From Wocania sp. (GTDB lineage Bacteria; Bacteroidota; Bacteroidia; Flavobacteriales; Flavobacteriaceae): DNA of 64,000 nt. Below, in pieces: positions 6,613-62,354 of this stretch. The stretch covers positions 32,724 through 96,723 of the forward strand of contig CBDDAJ010000036.1 in the NCBI GenBank assembly GCA_965224845.1, written 5' to 3'. Made by a program: the position numbers and the translations under genes. The notes under the pieces were generated by a model. The model saw only the letters and a program-made list of their open reading frames with translations, did no database searches and had not been told where the DNA came from. Position 1 is the stretch's first letter. Every line of letters begins with the position of its first letter.

Positions 6613-7917
6613 TTGGACCCTGACCCCACGAGTTTTATATCATTACTTATAGCAATTGATTTTTCAGTTGTTAGTGGTTTTGCTTTGTTGTTTTTACTTT
6701 TAATTTGTTCTGCACTAATTTCTGGTGCCGAAGTAGCATTGTTTTCACTAACCAGAACTGATATTGAAGAAGGATTAGAAGCAAGATCTAAACGTATTCA
6801 AATTATTGCAAAGCTTTTAGAGCATCCCAAAAAATTACTTGCCACCATATTAGTATCTAACAATTTTATTAATATCGCTATTGTACTTTTGTTTGCTTAT
6901 TTAGGCAGCAATATGTTTGAATCGATTACCTCACCTATCTTGAAATTTACTATAGAGGTAATAATTGTAACCTTTCTTATTTTATTATTTGGAGAAATAT
7001 TACCCAAAATTTATGCGAGCAGAAATAAGTTAAAGTTTGCTTCTTTTATGGCCTATCCTTTACGCATTTTGGATGTATTACTTACACCTATTAGTATGCC
7101 AATGCGAGGTGTTACCATGGCTATTCATAAAAAACTAGGCAGGCAAAAATCTAATTTAAGTGTCGATCAATTATCGCAGGCTTTAGAACTTACAAGTGAA
7201 CATGATACAACCAAAGAAGAACAAAAAATATTGCAAGGTATTGTATCCTTTGGAAATACAGATACTAAACAAGTTATGCGACCACGCATAGATATTTTTG
7301 CACTTAATATAGAGCAAAAATATGCCGAAATCATGCCAGAAATCATAGCTAATGGCTATTCTAGAATTCCGGTTTTTAGAGACAATATTGATACTATTGA
7401 AGGCATCTTGTATGTAAAGGATTTATTGCCTTATATTGACAGAAAGCAATTTGATTGGCCTACATTATTACGGGAACCTTTTTTTGTGCCAGAAAACAAA
7501 AAACTGGACGACTTAATGACGGAGTTTCAAGACAAAAAAGTACACTTAGCTGTTGTTGTTGATGAATATGGCGGGACTTCCGGATTGATTTCTTTAGAAG
7601 ATATTATTGAAGAAATTGTTGGTGATATTAGTGATGAGTTTGACGACGAAGATTTGATGTACTCAAAACTGGATGATAATAACTACGTGTTTGAAGGTAA
7701 AACAGCATTAAAAGATTTTTATAAAGTTATTAAGGTTGAAGACGATACGGTTTTTGAGTCCCATAAAGGTGAAGCCGAAACCATTGCTGGATTTGTATTA
7801 GAAATATCAAAAAGCTTTCCTAAAATAAATAGTAAAATAAATTTTGAAAATTACGTTTTCACTATTGAAGCTTTAGATAAAAAACGTATTAAGCGCATTA
7901 AATTAACGAGAACTTAA
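6613..7917 (+). CDS. gldE: Gliding-motility protein GldE (CorC/HlyC-type CBS-domain membrane protein)
   Basis: DUF21 transmembrane N-terminus, CBS pair, CorC_HlyC C-terminus. Context mutY-ssb-gldE-gldD matches the Flavobacterium johnsoniae arrangement. Confidence 0.8.
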   Translation: MDPDPTSFISLLIAIDFSVVSGFALLFLLLICSALISGAEVALFSLTRTDIEEGLEARSKRIQIIAKLLEHPKKLLATILVSNNFINIAIVLLFAYLGSNMFESITSPILKFTIEVIIVTFLILLFGEILPKIYASRNKLKFASFMAYPLRILDVLLTPISMPMRGVTMAIHKKLGRQKSNLSVDQLSQALELTSEHDTTKEEQKILQGIVSFGNTDTKQVMRPRIDIFALNIEQKYAEIMPEIIANGYSRIPVFRDNIDTIEGILYVKDLLPYIDRKQFDWPTLLREPFFVPENKKLDDLMTEFQDKKVHLAVVVDEYGGTSGLISLEDIIEEIVGDISDEFDDEDLMYSKLDDNNYVFEGKTALKDFYKVIKVEDDTVFESHKGEAETIAGFVLEISKSFPKINSKINFENYVFTIEALDKKRIKRIKLTRT

Positions 7918-34394: not shown

Positions 34395-34585
34395 TGTTTA
34401 CTGATAACTGCCCACTGCAAACCAGCCCGCGTTAGGGATTGATGCGGCATCCTTTTTTAAAATAAATAAAATGCTCTTTATTTAGAGCTAAAATTTAAGA
34501 GATACCCACGTTTGTTTCTTCTTGCTATGACGCAAAAAAGATATAGCGGAAAGCCCGACCTGCAAGGTAACGCCCAAATACTATT
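34395..34585. repeat. GC-rich mosaic intergenic element E3 (contains gcgttagggattga, as in E1)
   Basis: Exact 14-nt match to E1. Locally elevated GC. Confidence 0.5.
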
Positions 34586-49422: not shown

Positions 49423-51264
49423 ATGAAAAACAATAATGTGCTAAATTATATTAAAGATGTATTAGAACACATGCCGTCTGACTGGCTGAACCTAACAACA
49501 CATCGACTGGATATTTATGATGAAACATTAGCCAAAACTCAATTCTTAGATCAGTTTGAACTCTTATTCAAAGCCAACAACTCTAAGACGTCGGCTCTAA
49601 GTAAATTACCCACCGCCTACGACTATATTCGATTAGGCCATCCTTTATCTTGTATACTAGAATGGGGAATTGCCAGCTTAAACAAGCTAAAACCAGAAAA
49701 TGTAATCAGCTTTTCTTCAAAGACCATACCCATTCTAGCCATTCTAAGAAAAAATTTACTTGACAACAAAAGCACACAAATTATCTATACAGGCGAATTA
49801 CCTGTTTTTTTTGATGCAGAGTTACTAAAAAACATTTATGGTTATGATTTTGATCTAAAGCGTATTGAAAAAACGGATGAGATTTCTCAGTTTAACGGCA
49901 GTACCATTTTTATATCGCAACAAAATAAGATCAGCAATATTAACCTCTATCCGAATATTGATTTTTTCATTAGTAATTACTCACAGCTTGGGAGTATTTT
50001 GTTAGTAAATGGCGAACAGAACAAAAGTTATATCTCAGAAATTCAACATGTTAGAAGAAGAGAAACCATTGCGATGACGCCAGATAATTGTTTGATGGCC
50101 TTAAAATCTCTAACCCAGCAGTCTCCTTTTGATATTGATAATAATGCAGAAACCGGCAAAACGATTGTTTTAGACTCAATTGCAGCCATTACCGGTACCA
50201 CTACAAAGCCACTAGTTGGTTCTAGTGGACTATCTATTCAATACGCGATTATGATGGGGCTCGTACACGATGCATTAGAAAATCATAAAGGTAAGGCTAT
50301 CAAATTTATTGTGCCTCCAAATTGTTATGGCGGAACTAATGACCAAGCAAGGCGAGTTGCTGCATGCATAGATAATGTTGAAGTGGTAGATTTACTAGTT
50401 GATGGTAATAATAATATGGTGAGTAGTATTGATACCATTTTAGATAAAATTGCTAACGAAGATGCTATCCCATACATCATTGCCGAAATACCAACAAACC
50501 CCAGAGTTGAGGTTCCTAATCTTGTAGAACTAAAAGCAGCTTTAGCTAAAGAACGTAAAACGGCTACTGGTAAAATTGCGATAGACCCTGTTTTTATTTT
50601 AGATCAAACATTTTGTCCTAATGTGCTCTTTTTAGGTGAAGGTGAGATCCTCTCTACGGTTAGAGCTATTTCATATGTTAGCGGATCAAAATTCCCTAGT
50701 GGCGGGAAATGTACGGCTGGCTACTGTGTAGGAAATAAAAAAACGGAAGCTTTAATAAAAAAAATAGAAAAGCATCTTATGCTTTGTGATAATAAGGCCA
50801 CTAACCTTCAAATTGAGATATTGGCAAAACAGCTACCGTCTATGAATCAAAGAATACATGATGCCTATAAAAATACTCGTGAATTTGTAAATTTTATCAA
50901 TGAAACCTTACCAGAAGCGAAAATAAATTTTGTATCGCCAGCATTGGCAAAACAAGGATTTACTCCCTCTGTATTTTCATTAGATCTGCCCACTAAAGGT
51001 AATACTACCGAAGAAAAAGAAACTTATAAAAGAGCGTTGAATCTTAAATTAATAAATTTAATGATTACCAAAATTCCTAATGAAAGCAAATACTGTGTAA
51101 GCTATGGGCAGTTACGTGGATGTTATTGGACCATACCGGCAACCTCTACCCAGGGGACCACTAAAGAAGATGATAAAGATTATATTGCGCGTGTAGCTCT
51201 TTCACCTAATCTGGATCTTGAGCTTCATAAAAAAATCTTTTTAGATTTTGTTGGAACAATTTGA
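49423..51264 (+). CDS. Divergent, insertion-expanded homolog of Cys/Met-metabolism PLP-dependent enzymes (613 aa); function unknown
   Basis: Aligns motif-by-motif with the MetB-like gene in this window: YDYIRLGHPL~YEYSRTHNPT, AEIPTNP~VETPTNP, YVSGSKFPSGG~HSATKYLGGH. 4-nt gap after the ArsC-family gene. Confidence 0.4.
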   Translation: MKNNNVLNYIKDVLEHMPSDWLNLTTHRLDIYDETLAKTQFLDQFELLFKANNSKTSALSKLPTAYDYIRLGHPLSCILEWGIASLNKLKPENVISFSSKTIPILAILRKNLLDNKSTQIIYTGELPVFFDAELLKNIYGYDFDLKRIEKTDEISQFNGSTIFISQQNKISNINLYPNIDFFISNYSQLGSILLVNGEQNKSYISEIQHVRRRETIAMTPDNCLMALKSLTQQSPFDIDNNAETGKTIVLDSIAAITGTTTKPLVGSSGLSIQYAIMMGLVHDALENHKGKAIKFIVPPNCYGGTNDQARRVAACIDNVEVVDLLVDGNNNMVSSIDTILDKIANEDAIPYIIAEIPTNPRVEVPNLVELKAALAKERKTATGKIAIDPVFILDQTFCPNVLFLGEGEILSTVRAISYVSGSKFPSGGKCTAGYCVGNKKTEALIKKIEKHLMLCDNKATNLQIEILAKQLPSMNQRIHDAYKNTREFVNFINETLPEAKINFVSPALAKQGFTPSVFSLDLPTKGNTTEEKETYKRALNLKLINLMITKIPNESKYCVSYGQLRGCYWTIPATSTQGTTKEDDKDYIARVALSPNLDLELHKKIFLDFVGTI

Positions 51265-51294
51265 AAATTAATCTGATATTATTTATAACCTTAA

Positions 51295-51386
51295 ATACAA
51301 AAGCTATGATTTATATGTCATAGCTTTTGTTTGTTTTGCTTACTCAATATGGCACCCGACACAGTCGAGCGCTAGCGGGGTTCAAT
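51295..51386. repeat. Junction module copy a: 13-bp-stem hairpin (acaaaagctatga..tcatagcttttgt) plus GC-rich box GGCACCCGACACAGTCGAGCGCTAGCGGGG; marks the island/core boundary
   Basis: Read directly. Same bipartite module recurs at 51645-51763/53174-53212, 53786-53909 and 56575-56695/58106-58148. Confidence 0.8.
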
Positions 51387-51398
51387 TTTTGATATCAA

Positions 51399-51644
51399 CT
51401 AATTTGGACGGTGACCGTTAAGACTATCTTTATTTACCATATTAATACTATCTAATTTTACTTTAATAGAGTCTACTATATTAATATTTTTCTTCTTCAA
51501 ATCAGACTTAATTTCCTGAACAGCTTCAATTGTTTTAACTGAAGCTTTTCCAAACCCAACACTTGCATTATAATAAAAAAATGCTGTTGCTATTAACAAT
51601 AAAACAAATAGCGATATTAATATAATTTTATTTTTTTTCATCAT
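51399..51644 (-). CDS. Small (81 aa) signal-peptide/TM protein; reading frame is open upstream into an rhs-derived YIYDATGVKLKKIVS segment
   Basis: ORF track. Hand translation of the upstream minus strand gives ...SYNISHIYDATGVKLKKIVS directly in frame before MMKKNK. Confidence 0.4.
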   Translation of the reverse strand: MMKKNKIILISLFVLLLIATAFFYYNASVGFGKASVKTIEAVQEIKSDLKKKNINIVDSIKVKLDSINMVNKDSLNGHRPN

Positions 51645-51763
51645 GCTTACTATTTTTTTAAGCTTAACACCAGTGGCATCGTAAATATGAGAAATATTAT
51701 AACTATATGAAATACAAAAGCTACTCTAGTTTTTAGAATAGCTTTTGTTTATTTTGCTTACTC
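51645..51763. repeat. Junction module copy b, hairpin half plus rhs-derived segment (interrupted by IS at 51764)
   Basis: gcttactatttttttaagcttaacaccagtggcatcgtaaat...acaaaagctactctagtttttagaatagcttttgtttattttgcttaCTC. Confidence 0.75.
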
Positions 51764-51802
51764 TGTCTTGTCCTGAAATAGGTTTACACAAAAGTGTAAC
51801 AA

Positions 51803-52180
51803 ATGGAAAGATATACTAAGACATCTTCATCAAAATTTCAAAATAGATATAGTGAAGAGTTCAAACAATTTTTATGTAATGAATTTCTAACGGGAACTGC
51901 AACTAGAAAATCAATCGAAAAGAAGTATAATATAGGTAATAACCAATTGACTGTTTGGTTAAAGAAATTAGGATATGACTATTCAAAACCCAGTATTGTA
52001 CCTTTGCCCTCAATGGCAAATCAACCGGACAAATTATCAAATAAAGAAAAAAACTCTTTATCTCAATTAGAGAAGGAACTTGTAGAAGCTCGATTATTAG
52101 CTGAAACTTATAGGAAAATGATTGAAATTGCAGAGAATGAATTTAAAATAAAGATTGTAAAAAAGTCCAATACCAAGTAA
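51803..52180 (+). CDS. IS3-family transposase OrfA (HTH)
   Basis: 125 aa. HTH plus leucine-zipper-like C-terminus. Slippery AAAAAAG near the 3-prime end. Confidence 0.9.
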   Translation: MERYTKTSSSKFQNRYSEEFKQFLCNEFLTGTATRKSIEKKYNIGNNQLTVWLKKLGYDYSKPSIVPLPSMANQPDKLSNKEKNSLSQLEKELVEARLLAETYRKMIEIAENEFKIKIVKKSNTK

Positions 52181-52188
52181 TCCAAGAG

Positions 52189-53100
52189 ATGAAAAACCTA
52201 TATCCAAAGGTAAGCTTAGGCAGGTTCTGCCGATTACTTGGTGTTACCCGTCAAGCATATTATCAACATTTTTGGTATCGTGAACAATTATCTTTTGAAG
52301 AAGATTTAATTGTGTCCGAAGTACATAAGATTAGAAAAAATCATCGCCATATGGGAGGCAGAAAACTATATGAACTATTACAACCATTTTTATTAGCACA
52401 TCAAATAAAAATGGGAAGAGATCGGCTATTCGATATTTTATCAGCTAATTATCTTTTGGTTAGACGTAAAAAGAAACAAACAATAACTACAAATTCTTTC
52501 CATAGGTTTAAGAAATATTCAAACCTGATTAAGAAGTTTATTCCTGATAAACCAAATCAATTATGGGTAAGTGATATCACATATTGGAAAATCGAAACTG
52601 GTTTTGTTTATATTAGTTTTATAACAGATGCTTATTCTAGAAAAATTGTCGGTTATCATTTAGCTGATAGTTTAATGACCTCAGAGACAATCAAAGCATT
52701 ACAGATGGCAATATTCAATCTACCAGAAGGCTTAATAGATAAGTCTAAATTGATACATCATTCAGATAGAGGAACTCAGTATTGTAGTAACGAATATGTA
52801 AAATTGTTGCAAACCAATAACATTGAAATTAGTATGGCTGAAAACGGTGACCCGCTAGAAAATGCAATTGCAGAACGGGTTAATGGAATTATTAAGGAAG
52901 AATATCTCAACGATTATCAATTAGAGAATATAAAAACAGCTAAAGAATTACTTGATACTGTTGTTAATCTATATAATAATGAAAGACCACATATGAGCAT
53001 AGGTAATCTTACTCCTAATCAAGTACATCAAAACAATATAAAAATCGAAAAACTATGGAAAAATTATTATCTAAAAAGCCCTATTATTGTAAACCGATAA
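52189..53100 (+). CDS. IS3-family transposase OrfB (DDE/rve integrase core; expressed as OrfAB by -1 frameshift)
   Basis: Candidate DDE residues in WVSDITY, HSDRGTQY and the ...ENAIAERVNG region. Confidence 0.9.
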   Translation: MKNLYPKVSLGRFCRLLGVTRQAYYQHFWYREQLSFEEDLIVSEVHKIRKNHRHMGGRKLYELLQPFLLAHQIKMGRDRLFDILSANYLLVRRKKKQTITTNSFHRFKKYSNLIKKFIPDKPNQLWVSDITYWKIETGFVYISFITDAYSRKIVGYHLADSLMTSETIKALQMAIFNLPEGLIDKSKLIHHSDRGTQYCSNEYVKLLQTNNIEISMAENGDPLENAIAERVNGIIKEEYLNDYQLENIKTAKELLDTVVNLYNNERPHMSIGNLTPNQVHQNNIKIEKLWKNYYLKSPIIVNR

Positions 53101-53173
53101 TAGGACTAAGAATGAATTGTAAACCTATTTTAGGATTAATGTAAAACATGTAAACTTTTTTTAGGACGAGACA

Positions 53174-53212
53174 CTCATAACGGCACCCGTCACAGACGAG
53201 CGCTAGCGGGGG
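53174..53212. repeat. Junction module copy b, box half (variant GGCACCCGTCACAGACGAGCGCTAGCGGGGG)
   Basis: Directly abuts the IS right end after the CTC duplication. Confidence 0.75.
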
Positions 53213-53249
53213 ATGACCAGTTATCCACTAATTTAATCCGTTACCACCC

Positions 53250-53762
53250 CTAATAGTTAATTAATTTAGAGGTCATATAACTTACTAAAGCTTTATCTAA
53301 GGGGTTTGGTTTTACAATTAAAGACAAACATGTTTCTCCATACTTCGAACCATTTGAATCTCTCATTACAAAATAAAACATATTTCCTTTAGCTTCTTCA
53401 TAACCTTCTTTAAAGTAGTCTGATTCAAAACCTATAAAATCACTATGGTAATTGCTTTTGTCAAAAGATTTTAAGAGAATCTTGTTTGGTTTTTTTATTT
53501 TGTTAGAAGAAACAATATTGATTTCATCTCCTTTTAATTCAACAATTATTTCATTTACATCACTCTCCTTTTTAGATATCAACAAATAAAATGTATTAGA
53601 TATTGAAAATAGCAAGTAAGGTGTATCTGTATCCTTAATCACCTTTTTAGATATTAAACTTGCCTTATTCCTACTTTCAAGTTCGTATTTATTTAATTTT
53701 TGTGCAGAACAAGAATTGCAAACAACTAAAAAAGCCAGAATAAGAATTTTTGAATACTTCAT
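53250..53762 (-). CDS. Secreted 170-aa protein (candidate orphan immunity protein)
   Basis: Signal peptide with Cys (LAFLVVCNSCSA). Sits between two junction modules in the Rhs island. Confidence 0.4.
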   Translation of the reverse strand: MKYSKILILAFLVVCNSCSAQKLNKYELESRNKASLISKKVIKDTDTPYLLFSISNTFYLLISKKESDVNEIIVELKGDEINIVSSNKIKKPNKILLKSFDKSNYHSDFIGFESDYFKEGYEEAKGNMFYFVMRDSNGSKYGETCLSLIVKPNPLDKALVSYMTSKLINY

Positions 53763-53785
53763 AATTTTAATTTCTAATTAATGGC

Positions 53786-53909
53786 GCATCGTAAATGTAA
53801 GAAATATTATAACTATATGAAATACAAAAGCTACTCTAGTTTTTAGAATAGCTTTTGTTTATTTTGCCTACTCATAACGGCACCCGACACAGTCGAGCGC
53901 TAGCAGGTG
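53786..53909. repeat. Junction module copy c, uninterrupted (rhs-derived segment + hairpin + ttattttgcctaCTCataac + box GGCACCCGACACAGTCGAGCGCTAGCAGG)
   Basis: Shows the unoccupied IS target: ...ctactc|ataacggcaccc.... Confidence 0.8.
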
Positions 53910-54158
53910 AAACATAAGATTATTAAACAATAAGTGTTTAAAACTCTTTCTATAAACTCAATAAATAATCATTGAAGTTTCTTAATTTAGTGTGGAATTA
54001 ATACAATGGAATAATGGCAAAACAAAAAAACTCAAATAGTAATTCAAATAGCAATTCTGGAAATAAAAATTCTAGTACTGGTTCTTCTACCTATAACTCC
54101 AATATCACTCGTACAGGGGCAGAATCAACTAAAGGTTCTGGTAGCGGTAATAGACCAT

Positions 54159-54659
54159 CTAAAACAGATAAAAATTAAACACTGTTAGTAAAACTAAACC
54201 TAAAAACATTAGTGATATAGAGACATAATTTAGTCTCTTCGTCCAAGTGTTTAAGTCTTGTATTTTATTATCTATGTTTTTGTGTTGACAGTCGTCTATT
54301 TTTTCTCCTTCCATTTTTTCTAACTCCTCTAAAATATATTTCTCTTCATTATTATTTGCACTATATCCAGTCATTTGAGAGATAAAATTTGATGCAATAG
54401 CTATTAAAAATGAAAGACCAGAGAATAGTAATAAATTAGGTTGGTCGATAGAAATATCTCCTGTTTTAAATTCTCTTAAGGTTTCAAAAATAATATATAA
54501 TCCAGCTCCACATATTGAAATAATTAACAAGTCCATTCTTCTTGTAGAATAGTTAGTTCTATCTCTTGTGTTTGTTAGATATTCTTTCCACTTATTATAC
54601 TTAAGTTCTTTCTTCCCTTTCATAGTATCTAAGATAGTAATTAAATTACTAAAATTCAT
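54159..54659 (-). CDS. Hypothetical 166-aa protein with two predicted TM segments (island cargo; possible immunity-type protein)
   Basis: ORF track; hydrophobic segments. No enzymatic motifs. Confidence 0.4.
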   Translation of the reverse strand: MNFSNLITILDTMKGKKELKYNKWKEYLTNTRDRTNYSTRRMDLLIISICGAGLYIIFETLREFKTGDISIDQPNLLLFSGLSFLIAIASNFISQMTGYSANNNEEKYILEELEKMEGEKIDDCQHKNIDNKIQDLNTWTKRLNYVSISLMFLGLVLLTVFNFYLF

Positions 54660-54754
54660 ACATAATACTCACTCTAACTTTTCAACACTTGAAAAACTAT
54701 TTTACTATTTCGAATAAAAAAATATAAAATCAACAATCAAATTCATCGACTATA

Positions 54755-54903
54755 CAAAAACAAAAAACGAGCGCACATATTGTACACTCGTTTCTTTTCT
54801 TAGTTTAAATATTATACAGTTTATTATTTACTTACTTTATTTCATTACCATATCATTTTATGGTGTGTGTGGATATGGAATGGATTATTTATGCGTTTGG
54901 GTT
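54755..54903. repeat. Conserved about 150-bp 3-prime cassette tail A (about 90% identical to 58256-58415), containing a bidirectional terminator aacgagcgcacatattgtacactcgtt
   Basis: Read directly; aligned by eye to copy B. Confidence 0.75.
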
Positions 54904-54905
54904 CT

Positions 54906-55241
54906 CTATTTACATTTCTCTATTCCTAAAATCTTATATAAATTTCTTTTCGAAATAAATACTTCTTTGTTTTTAACAAACAAATCTTCATCAATATAGA
55001 AAACAAGAGTGTCTTCTTCTTTGATAGCCTTTATGCTATAAGTAGTATTATATTTTAAATAAACATCATTGAGTTTAGAGTTTTTAATCGCTCTCTCAAA
55101 TTGATTAATTGTCTTTTCATCATCAATTCTTTTTTGAAAAGTATCACACCCATAAATTTCAAGTGCTATAAATTCATTTTTAATATAATTATTACAATTA
55201 GAAAATAGAAATACAATTAGTAATGTTAAATATAGTCTCAT
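54906..55241 (-). CDS. Putative immunity lipoprotein (111 aa) for the orphan Rhs toxin tip
   Basis: Lipobox LFSNC. Immediately (1 nt) downstream of the orphan rhs-CT ORF. Confidence 0.5.
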   Translation of the reverse strand: MRLYLTLLIVFLFSNCNNYIKNEFIALEIYGCDTFQKRIDDEKTINQFERAIKNSKLNDVYLKYNTTYSIKAIKEEDTLVFYIDEDLFVKNKEVFISKRNLYKILGIEKCK

Positions 55242-56369
55242 TTAATCCATTTTTATTTTATCAAACCACGTCAAGCTTTTTGTTTTTTCATCGTGTACTT
55301 TTTGTGCGCTCTTATTAACTTTTTCGCCAGGGTCTACTATTACAGTTGAGCCTTTAATTCTTCCCAAATCTCTAAAGAGTTTTGTTTGCGTTCTAACAGT
55401 TTTTTTTCTGTCTTTATAATCAATAACAGATTCTTTACCAAAGCTATCAAGTTTTTTAGGAAAAGCTCTCATGCAAAAATCTGAACAATTGTTATCAATA
55501 AAATTATAAAATTCTGTTCCTTCTTTTTGTTCTAGTAACTTTTTAGCTTTTTCATCATATTTACCAGATGTTTTTATTTGAATAGCTCCGTCAAATGATG
55601 AAATACCCTTTATAGAATTATTCTTTATATCTTCCAATGTTACTCCCTCTTGAATGCCTACATCTCCTTTTACTGTTTTGTTAAAAGATTTTAATGAAAT
55701 TCTATTATCACGTCCACCTGCTGGTGAAAAATCGTATAGAGTATATGTTCCATCTTCAATATAATTACCATCTTTATCCTCTAAATAGTTTCCTTCATCA
55801 TCTTTTTTGTAATTTGAAACCGCTAAAGCCGCATGTCCAACATCTTCTCTTCCTTCTCCTGGCAACCAAATAATCAAAATAACATCATTACCATCTGGGT
55901 CAATGACATTAATTGGATTGTTAATGGCATAATTGTATGGAGATTTATCAAAATGATTTTCAGATAATAAATCTAAATTCATCCACCTGCCCAAAGCAGC
56001 ATCATAATTCCTAGCAGTTACATCATACCAGCCTAATCCTAACTCATCCTGATACTCCTTACCACCAAACTTATACTTAAGCGCTGGACTCGTAGAATTA
56101 ACCACCGTATTATACCCTTTATGTTTAAGTCCAAAGGGATAGTAGTTGTTTTCTTCCAGGATTTCAGAAGTTGTTATAACACCATTATTGTTATTATCCT
56201 TATAACTCAACCTTATATTCCCTAAATGGTCTTTATATTGATATACATAGCTATAACTGCTCCCATTAACATCTACATAGCCTTCCGGGTGGGAATACTG
56301 TATATTCCTTAAAATACCACTATTAAAACGCCCCTTTTCACCCCATACTTTAAAATAAAAAGAAGCCAT
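55242..56369 (-). CDS. Orphan Rhs C-terminal cassette: end of RHS core plus distinct about 200-aa toxin domain
   Basis: Region HPEGYVDVNGSSYSYVYQYKDHLGNIRLSYKDNNNNGVITTSEILEENNYYPFGLKHKGYN is near-identical to the main RHS protein, followed by ARNYDAALGRW...NNPINVIDPDGN and a unique C-terminus. Confidence 0.75.
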   Translation of the reverse strand: MASFYFKVWGEKGRFNSGILRNIQYSHPEGYVDVNGSSYSYVYQYKDHLGNIRLSYKDNNNNGVITTSEILEENNYYPFGLKHKGYNTVVNSTSPALKYKFGGKEYQDELGLGWYDVTARNYDAALGRWMNLDLLSENHFDKSPYNYAINNPINVIDPDGNDVILIIWLPGEGREDVGHAALAVSNYKKDDEGNYLEDKDGNYIEDGTYTLYDFSPAGGRDNRISLKSFNKTVKGDVGIQEGVTLEDIKNNSIKGISSFDGAIQIKTSGKYDEKAKKLLEQKEGTEFYNFIDNNCSDFCMRAFPKKLDSFGKESVIDYKDRKKTVRTQTKLFRDLGRIKGSTVIVDPGEKVNKSAQKVHDEKTKSLTWFDKIKMD

Positions 56370-56692
56370 AGCTACAGCTATGCTTTAGTTTTCTTTTTCG
56401 CCTGAGGCAAAAATCATTCGTTTTTATTACATGCCATTTTAAGCAATATCCAGTATACAGAATTTCAATGAACCGTTTTACTCACACCATTCTATTTGAT
56501 AAATAAGTGTTCGTGAACCTCATTTTATTTCGGTTTCGTATACATAATTGCCTACATAATCAGTTGTTGCTCCCGTGCTTACTATTTTTTTAAGCTTAAC
56601 ACCAGTGGCATCGTAAATGTAAGAAATATTATAACTTTATAAAACACAAAAGCTACTCTAGTTTTTAGAATAGCTTTTGTTTATTTTGCTTA
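56370..56692 (-). pseudogene. Degenerate 5-prime remnant of the orphan rhs cassette (YIYDATGVKLKKIVSTGATTDYVGNYVYE then stop and insertions)
   Basis: Hand translation. Nucleotide similarity to main rhs at 59690-59830 is interrupted by stop and inserted segments. Confidence 0.6.
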
Positions 56693-56695
56693 CTC
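56575..56695. repeat. Junction module copy d, hairpin half (interrupted by IS copy 2 at 56696)
   Basis: Identical hairpin and ttattttgcttaCTC as copy b. Confidence 0.75.
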
Positions 56696-56734
56696 TGTCT
56701 TGTCCTGAAATAGGTTTACACAAAAGTGTAACAA

Positions 56735-57112
56735 ATGGAAAGATATACTAAGACATCTTCATCAAAATTTCAAAATAGATATAGTGAAGAGTTCAAACAA
56801 TTTTTATGTAATGAATTTCTAACGGGAACTGCAACTAGAAAATCAATCGAAAAGAAGTATAATATAGGTAATAACCAATTGACTGTTTGGTTAAAGAAAT
56901 TAGGATATGACTATTCAAAACCCAGTATTGTACCTTTGCCCTCAATGGCAAATCAACCGGACAAATTATCAAATAAAGAAAAAAACTCTTTATCTCAATT
57001 AGAGAAGGAACTTGTAGAAGCTCGATTATTAGCTGAAACTTATAGGAAAATGATTGAAATTGCAGAGAATGAATTTAAAATAAAGATTGTAAAAAAGTCC
57101 AATACCAAGTAA
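56735..57112 (+). CDS. IS3-family transposase OrfA (copy 2)
   Basis: Protein identical to 51803..52180. Confidence 0.9.
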   Translation: MERYTKTSSSKFQNRYSEEFKQFLCNEFLTGTATRKSIEKKYNIGNNQLTVWLKKLGYDYSKPSIVPLPSMANQPDKLSNKEKNSLSQLEKELVEARLLAETYRKMIEIAENEFKIKIVKKSNTK

Positions 57113-57120
57113 TCCAAGAG

Positions 57121-58032
57121 ATGAAAAACCTATATCCAAAGGTAAGCTTAGGCAGGTTCTGCCGATTACTTGGTGTTACCCGTCAAGCATATTATCAACA
57201 TTTTTGGTATCGTGAACAATTATCTTTTGAAGAAGATTTAATTGTGTCCGAAGTACATAAGATTAGAAAAAATCATCGCCATATGGGAGGCAGAAAACTA
57301 TATGAACTATTACAACCATTTTTATTAGCACATCAAATAAAAATGGGAAGAGATCGGCTATTCGATATTTTATCAGCTAATTATCTTTTGGTTAGACGTA
57401 AAAAGAAACAAACAATAACTACAAATTCTTTCCATAGGTTTAAGAAATATTCAAACCTGATTAAGAAGTTTATTCCTGATAAACCAAATCAATTATGGGT
57501 AAGTGATATCACATATTGGAAAATCGAAACTGGTTTTGTTTATATTAGTTTTATAACAGATGCTTATTCTAGAAAAATTGTCGGTTATCATTTAGCTGAT
57601 AGTTTAATGACCTCAGAGACAATCAAAGCATTACAGATGGCAATATTCAATCTACCAGAAGGCTTAATAGATAAGTCTAAATTGATACATCATTCAGATA
57701 GAGGAACTCAGTATTGTAGTAACGAATATGTAAAATTGTTGCAAACCAATAACATTGAAATTAGTATGGCTGAAAACGGTGACCCGCTAGAAAATGCAAT
57801 TGCAGAACGGGTTAATGGAATTATTAAGGAAGAATATCTCAACGATTATCAATTAGAGAATATAAAAACAGCTAAAGAATTACTTGATACTGTTGTTAAT
57901 CTATATAATAATGAAAGACCACATATGAGCATAGGTAATCTTACTCCTAATCAAGTACATCAAAACAATATAAAAATCGAAAAACTATGGAAAAATTATT
58001 ATCTAAAAAGCCCTATTATTGTAAACCGATAA
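57121..58032 (+). CDS. IS3-family transposase OrfB (copy 2)
   Basis: Protein identical to 52189..53100. Confidence 0.9.
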   Translation: MKNLYPKVSLGRFCRLLGVTRQAYYQHFWYREQLSFEEDLIVSEVHKIRKNHRHMGGRKLYELLQPFLLAHQIKMGRDRLFDILSANYLLVRRKKKQTITTNSFHRFKKYSNLIKKFIPDKPNQLWVSDITYWKIETGFVYISFITDAYSRKIVGYHLADSLMTSETIKALQMAIFNLPEGLIDKSKLIHHSDRGTQYCSNEYVKLLQTNNIEISMAENGDPLENAIAERVNGIIKEEYLNDYQLENIKTAKELLDTVVNLYNNERPHMSIGNLTPNQVHQNNIKIEKLWKNYYLKSPIIVNR

Positions 58033-58105
58033 TAGGACTAAGAATGAATTGTAAACCTATTTTAGGATTAATGTAAAACATGTAAACTTTTTTTAGGACG
58101 AGACA

Positions 58106-58148
58106 CTCATAACGGCACCCGTCACAGACGAGCGCTAGCAGGTTATTC
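58106..58148. repeat. Junction module copy d, box half (variant GGCACCCGTCACAGACGAGCGCTAGCAGG)
   Basis: Abuts the IS copy 2 right end. Confidence 0.75.
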
Positions 58149-58255
58149 AAAACAATGTCTTAGTTGATTTAGACATGAACAACTTAAACATTCCTTTCAT
58201 TAATCATGAAGGTTGATACATCTTTACACGTTTGGTAGTTAGCTTAAATCACTCC

Positions 58256-58415
58256 ACAAAACAAAAAACGAGCGCACATTAAGTACACTCGTTTTCTTTT
58301 CTTAGTTTAATATATTATACAGTTATTTACTTATCTTACTTTATTTCATTTACCATATCTAGTGATGTGTGTGGATATGGAATGGATTATTTATGCGTTT
58401 GGGTTAATAAATAAA
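58256..58415. repeat. Conserved 3-prime cassette tail B (pairs with 54755-54903) with bidirectional terminator
   Basis: Aligned by eye; about 90% identity over about 150 bp. Confidence 0.75.
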
Positions 58416-58434
58416 TTATGGTATAAATGAACTT

Positions 58435-58752
58435 CTATTTTGTATGACCAAACCTTATAACTTTACAGTCTGATTTTTGAATCTCAATAAATGGAACACC
58501 ACCAACATCGTAATTTAAAGTCCCTTCTACTAACCATACTTTGTCATCTTCTATTGACCTAGCCTTTAAAGGTAAGCTTTCATCGATTCTTTCTCCATAA
58601 ACTGAATAAAGAAGGGTACTTGCAACTTTAAGAGCGACTTGTTCATCATCAACAATACCTTTTTTTTCATTATTAGAGTTTCCTGCTTGAAATGATAAAC
58701 ACAGAATTGTCAAAATAAATACAACACTTAAAATCTTTAGATTAAATTTCAT
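58435..58752 (-). CDS. Putative immunity lipoprotein (105 aa) for the main Rhs toxin
   Basis: Lipobox (LTILCLSFQAG). 11 nt downstream of the RHS stop. Confidence 0.5.
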   Translation of the reverse strand: MKFNLKILSVVFILTILCLSFQAGNSNNEKKGIVDDEQVALKVASTLLYSVYGERIDESLPLKARSIEDDKVWLVEGTLNYDVGGVPFIEIQKSDCKVIRFGHTK

Positions 58753-58763
58753 TATTACAATTT

Positions 58764-61700
58764 TTATAATTTCTCTTCTTCTATCCCTTTTGGTTCTAGG
58801 TTATTAACTGGTTCTACTTTTTCTCTACTCCCATCAGGATTAATATTATTTACCCTTACAGGCGAATTGGGGTCACTAGGAACATTTGTTGAAACTATGG
58901 TTACTTTTCCAGTTATAGGGTCTATTTTTTGAACAGTTCCACTTGGTGTAACAACATAAGTCGGCAATCCAATTTCCTTAGTTCTTTCTACATCGTTATA
59001 AGATGGCTCATTATCAGCATCCGTCTCTCCCTCAATAGTTTCCTTTTCATCATTTCCGTGAGTATGAATATCTCCTGAAGGCTCACTACCTTTCGGAATT
59101 GAGCTTTCATCTGGGATAAAAGCACCAGCCTCACTACCTATTAACGGTTCAACATAGGAATATGTTGTTTCGCCATTTTTTGTAGTAGAATAGAAAATAG
59201 AAGCATACTCTCTTTTACTTGTTATTGAAACTCCATTATATTGTTTTCCAAAATTTACTGCTGCATCATCAACAGATTTATGAACAGAATGTGGCTCTAA
59301 ACCTTCAAGTTCTCTAGCATCTATGACTCTATTTCCACTAAATACATATGGTCCCCAATCCATATATTCTTCTGTTAATGGGTCTATTGTCATAAATCTA
59401 CCAATTGCTGGGTCGTGATTTCTCCATTTAAATTGTATCCAGTTTAACCCTAACTCATTTTGTTCTTCTTGCTCTTGGAATCCATACGGATGGTCTGTAC
59501 CATTTATAACATTGTTATACCCTTTATGTTTCAGTCCAAATGGATAGTAGTTGTTTTCTTCCAGGATTTCAGAAGTTGTTATAACACCATTATTGTTATT
59601 ATCCTTATAACTCAACCTTATATTCCCTAAATGGTCTTTGTATTGATATACATAGCTATAACTGCTCCCATTAACATCTACATAACCTTCCGGGTGATTA
59701 AAGAATTTCAAAGAACCGCCTTCGTATACATAATTGCCTGCATAATCAGTGGTAGTTGATGTACTACTATTGTTATACACAAGCTTTCTCAGTTTTATGC
59801 CTGTGGCATCATAAATATACTTAATTTTTTTGTTATTATTGTTATCAAATTTTACTTCATCAGGAAGATTTAAATGGTTATAGCTAACCCCATTAACTGA
59901 GGCAGTACCAATGCCCTTATTCAAGTCTTTAACCATATTGCCGTTAGCATCATAAGTGTATTCTGTGGTTGTATTAGAGCCATCTTTAAAGCCATAAGTA
60001 TCATTTCCATTATCTAATACTTTTTTAAGCCTATTACTATTGGTTTCATAGGTATAAACCAGATTGTCCATCACCCCAAAACTTGTAGCTCCACTATTGG
60101 TATGTCCTCTTCTCTGTAAATCAGTGATGTTTCCATTCTTATCATAGGCAACCGAGGTTAGGTTATAATTACTGGTATTCCCCGTAGCTCCTGTAATTCT
60201 ATTTAAAGCATCGTAAGTATATTTATACCACTTTAAGCCCTGGTCTGTGTTTTTGGTCTTCCACTCGGTCTCAGAGATATTGCCGTTATACAAAGGGGTA
60301 CCGCTATGACTAACTGTATTGTAATTTATTTTAAAACTAAATAAATCTGTTCCTAAGCTTGATGGATCATTTATTTGTTTAAGCCAGCCGCGAACATTAT
60401 AAGCGTAATTTACAGTTTGTAAGCGATTAGCATGAGATGATTTACCACCTACCCCTTTACTTTCTAACTGGCCTAAATTGTTGTAAACATTATCAACAAT
60501 GGTTTCCTGTTCTAAACTGTTTAGGGTTTGTTTTTGTCTTAACAGCCTGCCTTCATGGTCGTAAACAAAAACATCTCGTGTTGTAATGCTGGTTTGCCCG
60601 GTTTTAGAATGTGTGGTTTTTGTTTTATCAACTTTACCCACAAAATCCAGTTTGCTCTCTACAATGTCTGTTGTTTGTAAATAATCATTAATAGTTTTTA
60701 TATAAATAGGGCGTCCTTTTACATCATATCCTGTTATGGTGGTAATCCACTTTGCAGGGTTAGAGTTATCTAATACTCGTACTTTACTTCCTGTAGCCAG
60801 ACCTTTGGTTAATTTTTGAGTAGCACTCGCATTATTGTAATTAATAACCGCCTGCCCCTCGATACTGGAAGGCAGATTTGTAAATCCATTAAAGGAATAA
60901 TTATCATAATAGTTAATAGTATATACTTTTGATATGTTCGTTTTTGGATACACCAGATTATCATTACTGTAATATATATTAGCGCCTCCTAAACTAACAG
61001 ATGTACTGCTTTTAGTTACATATTGCAATGCCGTGGTATTTGCAGCATTTTGTAAAAAGGTTCTGCTAGAGTTAGTCGTTACAAGTCCGGTATAGGCTAC
61101 CCTTCCAAAAGCATCATATTTAGTGAATAGCCACGCATTGGTTGACGGGACACGTTGGTTAGCATCTTGTGTCATTATAGGCTGATCTAGCTTATTATAT
61201 ACTATATATTCACAGCCTTTACCCGGTATTTTCTTTTCTACCAGACGGTTTCTTTTATCGTAGGTATACTGATAGCACAAGGCATTAAGTTCTGAGGTGG
61301 TTGGTTTATCTGTTGTCGCTTCTGATTTTGGGGGCAATACAAAACTTAAGTTCCCATAATCATCATATACATAATAGGTGTCGTGCGCTACATTGGTTTG
61401 TGTTACACCATTTACTTTTGAGGTACCATAGCTGCGTTTTAAAATAACGCGCCCTTGCTTGTCTTTAAATTCTTCGGTGGTATTTGCTGTTCCGCTAGTC
61501 CAATTCTCATCTTTAGTAATGGTTTTATAAAGGGTACCAGCCTTATAATATCCGCCATCTACTGCTGTGTTTAAGATCAAAGCAGGCGTGTAGGTAGTCA
61601 CTCCATTTGTTGTGGCAGCACTTAAGTTTACTTCATAACGTCTTATCGTGTTTGCTGTGTTGGTTTGGTAATCAAACTTAATTTCTTTTCCGCCACCCAG

Positions 61701-62354
61701 TTTCCAATCTTTTCCCGGAGCGGCTTGTTTTAATACCCTGTTAAGTGGTGAGGCTTCAAACGCTTTTTGAGCATAGGCATTAATATTGTTTAGGACCACT
61801 GACGGAAAATCTGTAGCATAATTGGATAAATAATACTGTTTGGTTGCTGTAGCTTTATTTCCACGATAGGCGCCAATATTTCCCGTGGCTTCCATATAGG
61901 GAAGCCAGTCCTTATCGGGTCTTCCGTAAGTATCATAATCGATATGGGTAATAATATCTTTTTTGCCCGGTGCAGATTTAATCCCTATATTTTGCATGGG
62001 CCTGCCCAGGCCATCAAAATAAGTAATTTGCTCTATAACATCGCCTTCTTTAGCAGTAGCAGAATTAAAGCTCGTCATAGGTTTTTGATAGCGTCGTGTA
62101 AATACATAATTTTCATTACTAAACGTCATAGAGGTATAGGGGTCTGTTGCTGTTGTTGGTTCTATAATTTGAGCGGTAAAGGTACTACCGCTTTTTATCC
62201 ATGTATTGGGTTTTAATGTAATACTATGGGTCGCTATTAAGGTTTCTGTTCCGGTTACCGTATAGGCATTTTCTTTAACTATAGTTGTTGGTGTTTGTGC
62301 AATAACTATTTGAGCTAACAGCAAAAAGGCTATGGTATATATATATTGTTTCAT
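58764..62354 (-). CDS. RHS/YD-repeat protein (1196 aa) with Sec signal peptide, RHS repeat-associated core and polymorphic C-terminal toxin domain
   Basis: Signal peptide MKQYIYTIAFLLLAQIVIAQT. Many YD repeats (YxYDxxGR/N). Core end WRNHDPAIGRFMTIDP. Unique C-terminal about 190 aa. Confidence 0.85.
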   Translation of the reverse strand: MKQYIYTIAFLLLAQIVIAQTPTTIVKENAYTVTGTETLIATHSITLKPNTWIKSGSTFTAQIIEPTTATDPYTSMTFSNENYVFTRRYQKPMTSFNSATAKEGDVIEQITYFDGLGRPMQNIGIKSAPGKKDIITHIDYDTYGRPDKDWLPYMEATGNIGAYRGNKATATKQYYLSNYATDFPSVVLNNINAYAQKAFEASPLNRVLKQAAPGKDWKLGGGKEIKFDYQTNTANTIRRYEVNLSAATTNGVTTYTPALILNTAVDGGYYKAGTLYKTITKDENWTSGTANTTEEFKDKQGRVILKRSYGTSKVNGVTQTNVAHDTYYVYDDYGNLSFVLPPKSEATTDKPTTSELNALCYQYTYDKRNRLVEKKIPGKGCEYIVYNKLDQPIMTQDANQRVPSTNAWLFTKYDAFGRVAYTGLVTTNSSRTFLQNAANTTALQYVTKSSTSVSLGGANIYYSNDNLVYPKTNISKVYTINYYDNYSFNGFTNLPSSIEGQAVINYNNASATQKLTKGLATGSKVRVLDNSNPAKWITTITGYDVKGRPIYIKTINDYLQTTDIVESKLDFVGKVDKTKTTHSKTGQTSITTRDVFVYDHEGRLLRQKQTLNSLEQETIVDNVYNNLGQLESKGVGGKSSHANRLQTVNYAYNVRGWLKQINDPSSLGTDLFSFKINYNTVSHSGTPLYNGNISETEWKTKNTDQGLKWYKYTYDALNRITGATGNTSNYNLTSVAYDKNGNITDLQRRGHTNSGATSFGVMDNLVYTYETNSNRLKKVLDNGNDTYGFKDGSNTTTEYTYDANGNMVKDLNKGIGTASVNGVSYNHLNLPDEVKFDNNNNKKIKYIYDATGIKLRKLVYNNSSTSTTTDYAGNYVYEGGSLKFFNHPEGYVDVNGSSYSYVYQYKDHLGNIRLSYKDNNNNGVITTSEILEENNYYPFGLKHKGYNNVINGTDHPYGFQEQEEQNELGLNWIQFKWRNHDPAIGRFMTIDPLTEEYMDWGPYVFSGNRVIDARELEGLEPHSVHKSVDDAAVNFGKQYNGVSITSKREYASIFYSTTKNGETTYSYVEPLIGSEAGAFIPDESSIPKGSEPSGDIHTHGNDEKETIEGETDADNEPSYNDVERTKEIGLPTYVVTPSGTVQKIDPITGKVTIVSTNVPSDPNSPVRVNNINPDGSREKVEPVNNLEPKGIEEEKL

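Follow-up and report, generated by a model that had tools for sequence, protein, structure and literature searches.

We analysed a stretch of 64,000 nucleotides from Wocania sp. (Flavobacteriaceae; GenBank assembly GCA_965224845.1, contig CBDDAJ010000036.1, positions 32,724 to 96,723 of the forward strand), hereafter the window. In its Rhs toxin island a non-coding module is repeated four times, each copy consisting of an AT-rich hairpin, a spacer and a GC-rich box. All rhs genes and cassettes of the window are encoded on the minus strand. On this coding strand the elements follow one another as box, spacer, hairpin and rhs fragment; on the plus strand each module reads as the AT-rich hairpin, the spacer (...GC[T/C]TACTC[A]ATA[AC/T]GG) and the box. 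The box is very probably the repetitive extragenic palindrome (REP) of a system built around a REP-associated tyrosine transposase (RAYT). Two of the four modules are interrupted by an insertion sequence (IS). The genes, open reading frames (ORFs; lengths in amino acids, aa) and modules of the island are listed below in the order of the coding strand:

58764-62354, minus strand: main Rhs gene, 1196 aa, with DUF6443, RHS/YD repeats, Rhs_assc_core and a DUF4329 C-terminal domain.
58435-58752, minus strand: cognate immunity gene (Imm-NTF2-2), which closes cassette A and is followed by module 4.
58106-58148, minus strand: outer half of module 4, with duplicated CTC, ATAACGG and REP box 58114-58141 (T..A variant).
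56696-58105, plus strand: IS copy 2, 1410 bp, at the same module position as copy 1.
56520-56695, minus strand: inner half of module 4, with the orphan rhs fragment NISYIYDATGVKLKKIVSTGATTDYVGNYVYETEIK ending in a stop (about 56520-56633), hairpin 56646-56680 and spacer ending in CTC.
54906-56369, minus strand: cassette B, an orphan rhs C-terminal piece at 55242-56369 (Rhs_assc_core, different toxin tip) and a 111-aa putative immunity gene at 54906-55241.
54159-54659, minus strand: 166-aa membrane-like ORF, the last gene ahead of module 3.
53786-53909, minus strand: module 3, uninterrupted, with rhs remnant ISYIYDA (about 53786-53810), hairpin 53824-53858, spacer and REP box 53879-53906 (A..T variant).
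53250-53762, minus strand: cassette C, a 170-aa ORF fused right behind the YIYDA remnant; a putative orphan immunity gene with no family match.
53174-53212, minus strand: outer half of module 2, with duplicated CTC, ATAACGG, REP box 53182-53209 (T..A stem variant) and G-run.
51764-53173, plus strand: IS copy 1, 1410 bp, with orfA 51803-52180, orfB 52189-53100 and an A_AAA_AAG frameshift motif at about 52159-52165.
51645-51763, minus strand: inner half of module 2, with rhs fragment NISHIYDATGVKLKKIVS (about 51645-51701), hairpin 51714-51748 and spacer ending in CTC at 51761-51763.
51399-51644, minus strand: cassette D, an 81-aa ORF right after ...KLKKIVS of the rhs remnant; a putative orphan immunity or membrane protein.
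51295-51386, minus strand: module 1, at the island edge, with hairpin 51297-51330, TTACTC spacer, REP box 51351-51378 and G-run, and without an rhs fragment.

Along the coding strand, the main Rhs gene and the Imm-NTF2-2 gene are followed by module 4, an orphan rhs fragment with its toxin tip (56633→55242), the 111-aa and 166-aa genes and module 3; after module 3 come the 170-aa gene, module 2, the 81-aa gene, module 1 and the end of a convergent 613-aa gene (49423-51264), whose stop codon lies 33 nt from the hairpin of module 1. Each module comes after a small gene on the coding strand, and for all four copies the gene order agrees with the initial annotation, which had placed the module downstream of a small gene or at the island edge. 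The same annotation had assigned an rhs-derived YIYDATG segment to three of the four modules, and such minus-strand fragments are present: in modules 2-4 an rhs fragment (NIS[Y/H]IYDATGVKLKKIVS..., that is N-I-S-[Y/H]-I-Y-D-A-T-G) begins about 28 nt past the hairpin. The fragment is cut after YIYDA in module 3 and after ...KLKKIVS in module 2, and the next small gene joins it directly; the cassettes behind these two modules have evidently lost their toxin part by deletion. The GC content of the orphan region (51265-58763) is 29%, with or without the IS, compared with 36% in the main rhs gene and 33% in the rest of the window, which is consistent with horizontally exchanged accessory DNA.

The repetition of box and hairpin at four sites is real. 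The window holds exactly four copies of the box, GGCACCCG[A/T]CACAG[T/A]CGAGCGCTAGC (starts at 51351, 53182, 53879 and 58114, all on the plus strand), and all four are confined to the 7-kb orphan region; the chance expectation from shuffled sequences is 0.00. No extra copy exists in the window at up to three mismatches, and a relaxed search (up to nine substitutions, either box type, both strands) returned only the same four boxes. The AT-rich hairpin, ACAAAAGCTA...TAGCTTTTGT, is 34-35 nt long and accompanies every box; its sequence is identical in copies 2-4, and copy 1 differs in the loop. The spacer carries TTACTC, as first described, and in copy 1 reads tttgttttgcttactcaatatgg.

The box has a conserved fold. 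Across 113 distinct 28-mers, the structure.((.((((((...)))))).))...... has 89% of its cells paired, and double-sided changes are found in seven of the eight pairs (106 such cells). The covariation score was reached by none of 500 shuffles, and controls in slid registers were paired at 23-42%. Compensatory changes are seen, for example, in columns 7/17 (C-G vs A-U), 9/15 (U-A vs A-U) and 10/14 (C-G vs U-A), and the A/T difference among the window boxes is itself one compensatory stem pair. On the strand that encodes rhs and RAYT, two mismatches turn into G·T pairs, producing a 9-bp box hairpin with a DNA folding energy of -5.7 to -5.8 kcal/mol; the opposite strand folds poorly.

An exact-pattern scan for the 20-base box core in one genome per species (185,579 species), which under-counts diverged copies, recovered 66 loci. 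Two of these are chance matches in Cyanobium and all others belong to Flavobacteriaceae, with representatives in Aquimarina, Dokdonia, Maribacter, Tamlana, Flaviramulus, Postechiella, Leeuwenhoekiella, Hyunsoonleella, Croceitalea, Winogradskyella, Saonia and Flavivirga. Complete Aquimarina chromosomes have one and three box loci, and a single metagenome-assembled genome (MAG) has about 20 or more copies. The 28-mer is kept across genera although the accompanying RAYT proteins are only about 65-75% identical. We found no box in viral contigs and no match of the module to plasmids, and a phage or plasmid origin was rejected on these grounds. A metagenome scan with the window-type hairpin-spacer gave no match, and exact-protein look-ups for the IS transposase and the flanking 613-aa gene were likewise negative.

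Known structured elements were considered as well. At the gathering threshold Rfam 15 yields no match to the module, and a permissive scan of module 3 (E<=10) gives sub-threshold, chance-level matches only, so that a known RNA family was rejected; an att site derived from a tRNA or tmRNA was rejected because ARAGORN detects no such genes in the window. The sole Rfam match in the window is a Flavo-1 RNA (RF01705) at 34420-34564 on the plus strand, whose 43.3 bits exceed the gathering score of 42; it fits the flavobacterial origin of the window and is unrelated to the module.

The enzyme that goes with the box is found in relatives. At least 14 loci of other genera have box, spacer and hairpin on the upstream side, at a distance of 48-250 nt, of a divergently drawn gene of 186 aa (start MSRKYKFHN). 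Its product matches NCBIfam NF047646 REP_Tyr_transpos with 82.2 bits (cutoff 80) and Pfam Y1_Tnp, scores 24.8 bits against NCBIfam IS200 (cutoff 55), and shows weak sequence matches to the TnpA-REP structures PDB 2EC2 and 4ER8. The motifs SHVH, WQ and YIHNNP fit the Bacteroidetes TnpA-REP subclass 2.6, equivalent to Bertels group 5 (PMC6006769), whose members are described as flanked by 'atypical secondary structures' with further copies elsewhere in the genome (PMC6006769). A second, inverted box, GGCACTCGTTACAAACGAGCGCTAGCGG, lies 3' of the RAYT gene, and the arrangement of box (minus), RAYT (plus) and inverted box (plus) is seen in loci L009, L017, L026, L059, L060, L066, L067, L070, L073, L084 and L085 (related loci are designated by L-numbers throughout). 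The usual order in relatives is rhs, toxin tip, immunity gene, box, (hairpin), RAYT, inverted box, with the hairpin of RAYT loci about 12-25 nt ahead of the RAYT start codon. The inverted bracketing, the identity of the bracketed gene and the covarying stem together mark the box as the REP of a RAYT system.

RAYT-less copies of the unit stand between orphan cassettes in several genera. One of the modules closest to those of the window is found in L050, where the coding strand reads RAYT, inverted box, toxin tail and immunity gene, then box, hairpin and inverted box, then another toxin tail and immunity gene, again box, hairpin and inverted box, and so on. The inter-cassette element is a REP doublet (REPIN), that is, the RAYT unit minus its gene; inverted box doublets of this form occur in L050, L042, L021, L045, L047 and L058. 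Starting at the box, the window modules agree with the L050 REPIN across the hairpin and for another 20 nt or so; they part from it about 15 nt short of the inverted box, where they join the rhs fragment. The window modules are half-REPINs. Each is very probably the RAYT-less half of a flavobacterial REP/RAYT unit, made up of a 28-nt REP stem-loop, a TTACTC spacer and a predicted A/T-flanked bidirectional intrinsic terminator.

Some box variants were noted along the way. Exact head-to-tail duplications of 28-29 nt occur in L014 (6585-6641) and L051 (17-66), and a box in L050 (about 4990-5045) has an insertion of about 24 nt in its loop; both could be footprints of cleavage and rejoining at box edges. 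A different GC-rich palindrome, TGCACGGACTACAAGTCCGCGC, which may be a second REP type, is present in L050 (about 7010-7045) and in the left box flank of L011, and is absent from the window at up to five mismatches.

Using tblastn with three divergent Rhs proteins, we searched the flanks of the boxes. Of the 43 loci whose outer flank, on the G-run side, extends for 2.5 kb or more, 25 have an Rhs gene that converges on the box from within 5 kb, as have 16 of the 23 with at least 4 kb. Among all copies with an Rhs match on this side the orientation is convergent in 41 and divergent in 0, and a match on the inner side was found in only 4 of 41 loci. All five exact-box loci of three complete chromosomes (two from Aquimarina and one MAG chromosome) adjoin Rhs. 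A neighbour-blind sample points the same way: of seven RAYT homologues picked only for long contigs and new genera, with their neighbours disregarded, four abut large polymorphic toxins. Three of these have a large polymorphic toxin and an immunity gene directly upstream, namely Cellulophaga lytica (a 2456-aa toxin with a HopBF1-kinase tip, Imm49 downstream), Oceanihabitans (a 1726-aa toxin with a colicin/pyocin DNase tip and its immunity gene) and CP121314 (an upstream DUF6443 Rhs); the fourth, from Pelagihabitans, faces a convergent 3539-aa DUF6443/RHS gene. Dokdonia (L059) has four boxes between small genes, one of these genes Imm33-like, in the interval from rhs to RAYT. Low in copy number and strongly tied to Rhs and polymorphic-toxin loci in many genera, the box is not the ubiquitous REP-like repeat, unenriched at toxin cassettes, that the initial annotation had named as a refutation, and its idea is not refuted on this count. 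The REP module marks the ends of Rhs toxin/immunity cassettes across marine Flavobacteriaceae.

RAYT units are also found in defence islands, beyond toxin loci. In Psychroflexus torquis ATCC 700755 (CP003879.1; L071) the RAYT gene stands between an operon of the cyclic-oligonucleotide-based antiphage signalling system (CBASS; patatin, SMODS, E2) and hsdR, inside a type I restriction-modification locus.

A terminator scan returned all four AT-rich hairpins, with stems of 14-15 bp and T-rich tails, and found 10 sites compared with 2.2 ± 1.7 in shuffled sequences. The hairpin is accordingly scored as a predicted intrinsic terminator. On the coding strand, RNA spanning the REP hairpin and the terminator folds with -39.6 kcal/mol (z = -4.9). 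The hairpin sequence varies by genus, and the structure of A-tract, stem and T-tract recurs at RAYT-proximal and cassette-end copies. We dropped the notion that the hairpin is universal: it is present in 23 of 61 loci under strict criteria, and other copies bear the inverted box instead. The initial annotation had proposed a promoter or terminator punctuation element. The terminator half of this proposal agrees with the scan; the promoter half was rejected, as 56 sigma-70-like sites compared with 45 ± 6.6 expected do not amount to an excess with a tool that does not model Bacteroidetes-type promoters.

The island contains a further non-coding repeat of about 150 nt (54757-54903 and 58258-58405, minus strand, 80-98% identical), located directly 3' of both immunity genes (54906-55241 and 58435-58752). 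This repeat, which holds a strong predicted terminator (stems 54796-54762 and 58297-58263), precedes the REP module on the coding strand and is a punctuation element distinct from it.

Homology between copies ends sharply at the module. In the four window copies it stops at the G-run. In the 296 pairs of copies with an inner-flank identity of 75% or more (median 98%), identity drops to 56% in the outer flanks, compared with a background of 55%; the only exceptions are loci sampled twice. The annotated role of the module in delimiting toxin/immunity cassettes finds support here: between copies and between genomes, homology stops exactly at the outer edge of the box.

Arrays rich in REPINs display the same edges. 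In the MAG MFD03551.bin.3.149 (L021, L045, L047, L051, L058 and L063) a REPIN of about 133 nt follows nearly every small co-oriented gene; these REPINs agree with one another at about 99-100% identity, unlike the genes between them, and orphan toxin tips (MGNNPI.VDPDGG...) occur scattered through the arrays. These arrays look integron-like in layout. Two contigs of this MAG share, among different neighbours, a 131-aa cassette together with the REPINs on both its sides (98.4% identity over 759 nt), and other differences between the contigs likewise fall at REPIN edges: in one case an extra REPIN and gene, in another a REPIN at the place where the other contig has a toxin-immunity pair. A long same-strand array of unannotated genes in Psychroserpens sp. 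NJDZ02 (CP039451.1; L067 and L068) contains at least five units composed of a box, an N-terminal RAYT remnant of 35-55 codons and an inverted box. These units look like intermediates between the full RAYT unit and the REPIN.

The window modules are mosaic: copies group as {1 | 2,3,4} by hairpin, as {1,3 | 2,4} by stem variant and as {1,2 | 3,4} by tail. These conflicting groupings require recombination or conversion among the copies or with outside donors. The junction between module and rhs fragment is 94-97% identical over 88 nt in copies 2-4, so that it arose once and was then duplicated, and does not represent three site-specific events. The order of module and then rhs is also found with different hairpins and linkers in Aquimarina L020 (TIEYIYDAGG) and in the metagenome contig L079 (NIQYIYDSVG).

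On the rhs side, homology with the orphan fragments starts at KIKYIYDATG of the main Rhs protein (residues about 841-850). In Rhs proteins YIYDATG is where conservation resumes past a hypervariable linker, and L043 has an insertion of about 150 aa just before it; the shared start most simply marks the 5' end of a conserved recombination block. Orphan and main rhs DNA are 94-98% identical between 56092-56291 and 59497-59696, and the C-terminus of the orphan is different. Orphan rhs starts in general cluster at two recurrent sites, at residues about 841-849 (YIYDATG) and about 929-936 (YYPFGL, where the Rhs-associated core starts). The YYPFGL class comprises starts in L066 (2430 and 4180), L030 (6067), L048 (4294), L052 (2141), L001 (1587) and L024 (5142); the YIYDATG class comprises those in the window (56627), L020 (3173), L043 (6314) and L079 (156). 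Only the latter class has a module in front, and orphans starting near residue 935 have none on their 5' side. The generalization that a module always precedes orphan rhs fragments was dropped, as it applies to the window, L020 and L079 only. The opposite (plus) strand holds a candidate 54-aa low-complexity ORF, MAKQKNSNSNSNSNSGNKNSS..., at 54014-54178, in the interval from cassette B to module 3.

Modules 2 and 4 had been described as split, bipartite copies. Each is instead a single module interrupted by an identical 1410-bp IS with duplication of a 3-bp target, CTC (51761-51763 and 53174-53176 for copy 1). The terminal inverted repeats of the IS are imperfect and of the form TG...CA (TGTCTTGTCC.../...GGACGAGACA; the right repeat is also given as TGTCTCGTCC). 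Its orfB matches NCBIfam NF033516 (IS3 family) with 246.8 bits (cutoff 160) and has an rve/DDE domain, and its orfA has HTH_Tnp_1. The two IS copies show 0 differences over 1410 positions, whereas the module DNA adjoining them differs at about 6 of 120 positions. This favours two targeted insertions, and two independent events of this kind are more likely than the duplication of one segment. The alternative of a single recent segmental duplication was dropped, since the adjoining 120 nt or so differ and the same IS offset occurs in other genera. Related ISs have their right ends 9-10 nt from a box, and are oriented alike, at two loci of Aquimarina sp. Aq78 and in Aquimarina sp. 2304DJ70-9; in Flaviramulus (L046) a right end keeps this spacing to a diverged box. 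The positions are about 4967 in L005, 4820 in L057 and 7241 (minus) in L019, all Aquimarina, and about 302 (minus) in L046, with the right end always towards the box. From this placement the IS3-family element appears to be a REP-targeting IS of Flavobacteriaceae.

How would the module act? The reading we prefer, to which we assign a probability of roughly 55%, is that its main mode of action is that of a cassette terminator combined with a conserved arm for homologous exchange. The module would end each cassette transcript and is predicted to insulate or silence the orphans downstream. The cassette unit would run from the rhs block beginning at YIYD through the toxin tip and the immunity gene to the REP/terminator, which gives it two conserved arms, and homologous recombination in these arms would swap, stack, duplicate and delete cassettes within and between genomes. 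Homologous exchange is suggested by the sharp homology boundaries, the mosaic modules and the cassettes common to different neighbourhoods. The module is also the specific landing site of the IS3-family element, which accounts for the two split copies.

Several observations weigh against this reading. About 40% of the adequately flanked box loci have no Rhs match to the three queries, and the association is not universal among the blindly sampled RAYTs, one of the seven being in a CBASS/restriction-modification island and two in unannotated contexts. The number of copies is far below that of classical REPs, mostly one to three loci per genome in the exact-pattern scan. The window boxes are four co-oriented singlets, for which a search allowing up to nine mismatches brought up no inverted partner, and tblastn with a flavobacterial RAYT (E<=1e-5) finds no match in the window. 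The terminator and mRNA-stabilising activities are predicted ones. Most small cassette ORFs have no family match in Pfam or NCBIfam (Imm-NTF2-2, Imm33-like, Imm49, Colicin_Pyocin and DUF5958 were matched, at a few loci only), so that the label of immunity gene rests on context. Finally, the same patterns could also result if RAYT cut and rejoined DNA at REP edges, or if REPINs inserted between pre-existing cassettes.

The former possibility can be extended into a RAYT-driven, integron-like system, in which the RAYT would nick and rejoin REP hairpins folded in single-stranded DNA in order to capture, excise and reorder cassettes. With no RAYT gene in the window, any enzyme-driven step would act in trans or belong to the past, and the window array would be trans-served or a fossil. 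In many genera the RAYT gene does stand at the end of or within cassette arrays, and the MAG has a REPIN behind almost each small gene, like the attC sites behind integron cassettes. Breakpoints lie exactly at REPIN or box edges, the exact tandem boxes in L014 and L051 resemble cut-and-join products, the strand-asymmetric stability of the hairpin fits a single-strand substrate, and the 28-mer has been conserved through the divergence of the RAYT proteins. However, the catalytic role of this RAYT subclass is putative, the box is absent from viral contigs and plasmids, and the 5' edge of a window cassette is an rhs coding block, not the hairpin end that elements of the IS200/IS605 type need. The identical REPINs suit ordinary homologous recombination, which explains the same breakpoints. 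As the three window junctions are identical by descent and were not made independently, and as homologous recombination is sufficient, an active RAYT is not required, and we consider the RAYT-driven system unlikely. We are similarly doubtful of the broader idea that the flavobacterial RAYT/REP pair is a domesticated single-stranded-DNA transposase machine for polymorphic-toxin loci, with the cassette-end REP hairpins as its recombination sites. A more conventional site-specific system, with the module as the att or attC-type site of a tyrosine or serine recombinase (an integron, or an array of the recombinase-associated rAID type), would equally place a repeated structured element between co-oriented small genes, as do the rAID-1 arrays of Bacteroidales, which are recombinase-associated immunity arrays with integron-like intergenic repeats (bioRxiv 10.1101/471110). 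We regard such a system as scarcely credible here: the ten island ORFs scanned with Pfam and NCBIfam contain no Phage_integrase or XerD, the only integrase fold (rve) being that of the IS3 transposase; the enzyme accompanying the repeat in relatives is a Y1/HUH RAYT and not XerD or IntI; and inspection reveals no GTTRRRY core or R/L box layout, the spacer reading GTTATGA and the stem being a single one of 9 bp. An active role as the att-like site of a cassette-mobilising system, suggested in the initial annotation, is putative at most here, as the window has neither a recombinase nor a RAYT gene.

At the other extreme, the REPs and REPINs might be selfish or neutral products of RAYT, tolerated in exchanged islands and playing no role in cassette dynamics or expression. 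REPINs elsewhere are held to be RAYT-dependent replicators in intergenic DNA (PMC3116915, PMC5581495), the island is AT-rich accessory DNA (29% GC vs 33-36% around it), and some RAYT/box copies occur in other accessory contexts, such as the CBASS/restriction-modification locus of Psychroflexus and the unannotated array of Psychroserpens. Passive hitch-hiking does not, however, predict the regular position and polarity of the box (after the immunity gene, with Rhs converging 41 to 0), which counts against it; genomes with only one to three exact copies have all of them at Rhs loci, and the module terminator lies exactly where the end of an operon is expected. We therefore think it improbable. 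A role at the RNA level and not the DNA level, with the module encoding a small regulatory RNA or a leader that regulates the gene downstream (RAYT or orphan) in cis, would fit the strong coding-strand RNA fold, the hairpin just ahead of the RAYT start, which makes it part of the RAYT 5' region, and the parallel of the left-end terminator and leader hairpin of IS200. This is very unlikely given that no Rfam family is matched at the gathering threshold, that copies exist with and without a downstream gene and that promoters are not in excess; the covariation is the same for DNA or RNA folding.

RAYTs and REPs/REPINs are widespread, and their cellular role is described as unknown in the REP/RAYT literature. 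The window and about 80 related loci present a RAYT subclass with few, cross-genus repeats of strict polarity at the ends of toxin cassettes, and thereby a testable hypothesis for RAYT function. The 28-mer can serve as a simple marker for toxin/immunity cassette arrays in Flavobacteriaceae, where most cassette genes lack family annotation, and the module would explain a second, non-coding homology arm for the exchange of Rhs cassettes in this family. Even the conservative reading alone makes the module a clean case of one REP that terminates an operon, offers a patch for recombination and serves as a landing pad for an IS; the RAYT-driven one, if true, would mean an integron-like system based on a Y1/HUH enzyme and a concrete biological role for RAYTs. 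The repeated element belongs to the known REP/RAYT kind, and the one that interrupts it is an ordinary IS3-family IS. A link of RAYT/REP to Rhs or polymorphic-toxin cassettes we could not find described in the literature searched, outside which most subscription journals lie; a survey of polymorphic toxins mentions, by polyimmunity loci, only XerC/D recombinases (PMC3482391).

The comparison with REP/REPIN-RAYT systems is based on Nunvar 2010 (PMC2817692), Bertels & Rainey 2011 (PMC3116915) and Quentin 2018 (PMC6006769). As in these systems, the flavobacterial box is a short imperfect palindrome with a covarying stem, extragenic and 3' of genes; boxes bracket a Y1/HUH RAYT in inverted orientation, and gene-less inverted doublets exist. 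In contrast to them, there are usually one to five exact box copies per genome and not tens to hundreds, the boxes are concentrated in fixed orientation at the boundaries of polymorphic-toxin/immunity cassettes, the same 28-mer is shared by many genera, and the unit includes a predicted intrinsic terminator. The window copies differ further in being singlets with no RAYT gene within the 64 kb.

REP-targeting ISs are known from the IS3 family (IS1397, ISKpn1, ISPsy8) and from IS110 (ISPpu9, ISPpu10, IS621) (Tobes & Pareja 2006, PMC1525189). The flavobacterial IS3-family element, with its orfA/orfB, A_AAA_AAG frameshift motif and 3-bp duplication, likewise inserts repeatedly and in several genomes at one set place and in one direction with respect to a REP stem-loop. 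Its host family, Flavobacteriaceae, and its REP are different, and it inserts 9-10 nt outside the stem, between terminator and REP. IS1397 inserts inside the palindromic unit itself.

In IS200 the left-end terminator hairpin blocks read-through and, with the leader structure ahead of tnpA, represses the transposase. The flavobacterial unit is similar to the IS200 left end in that a structured end and then a bidirectional terminator are found immediately upstream of a gene of the Y1 transposase family. Unlike IS200, the RAYT unit is not a multicopy IS, and its left end also stands alone as cassette punctuation.

Orphan rhs arrays are thought to grow and exchange through homologous recombination in the conserved core, and are reportedly the subject of models by Jackson (2009), Poole (2011) and Koskiniemi (2014). 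The window resembles the orphan arrays of Enterobacteria and those of Vibrio-type sequential effector displacement, which serves as the comparison system for displaced toxin-immunity cassettes (PMC5361080): a full rhs gene is followed by presumably silent C-terminal fragments that retain part of the core and have their own immunity genes. What distinguishes it is that each window cassette ends in a non-coding REP/terminator module as a second homology arm, and that a transposase-derived RAYT gene is syntenic in relatives.

The nearest published concept is rAID-1, the XerD-associated immunity arrays of Bacteroidales with integron-like intergenic repeats (bioRxiv 10.1101/471110). Both these and integron arrays share with the flavobacterial loci the co-oriented, small and diverse genes of immunity type, the repeated structured intergenic element and the gene for one DNA-processing enzyme at or in the array, and the layout of the MAG loci L021, L045, L047 and L058 is very similar. 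The flavobacterial loci differ in that their enzyme is a Y1/HUH RAYT, putative in this role, where those arrays have a tyrosine recombinase (XerD/IntI), in that a REP/REPIN takes the place of attC, and in that their arrays hang off a functional Rhs toxin gene.

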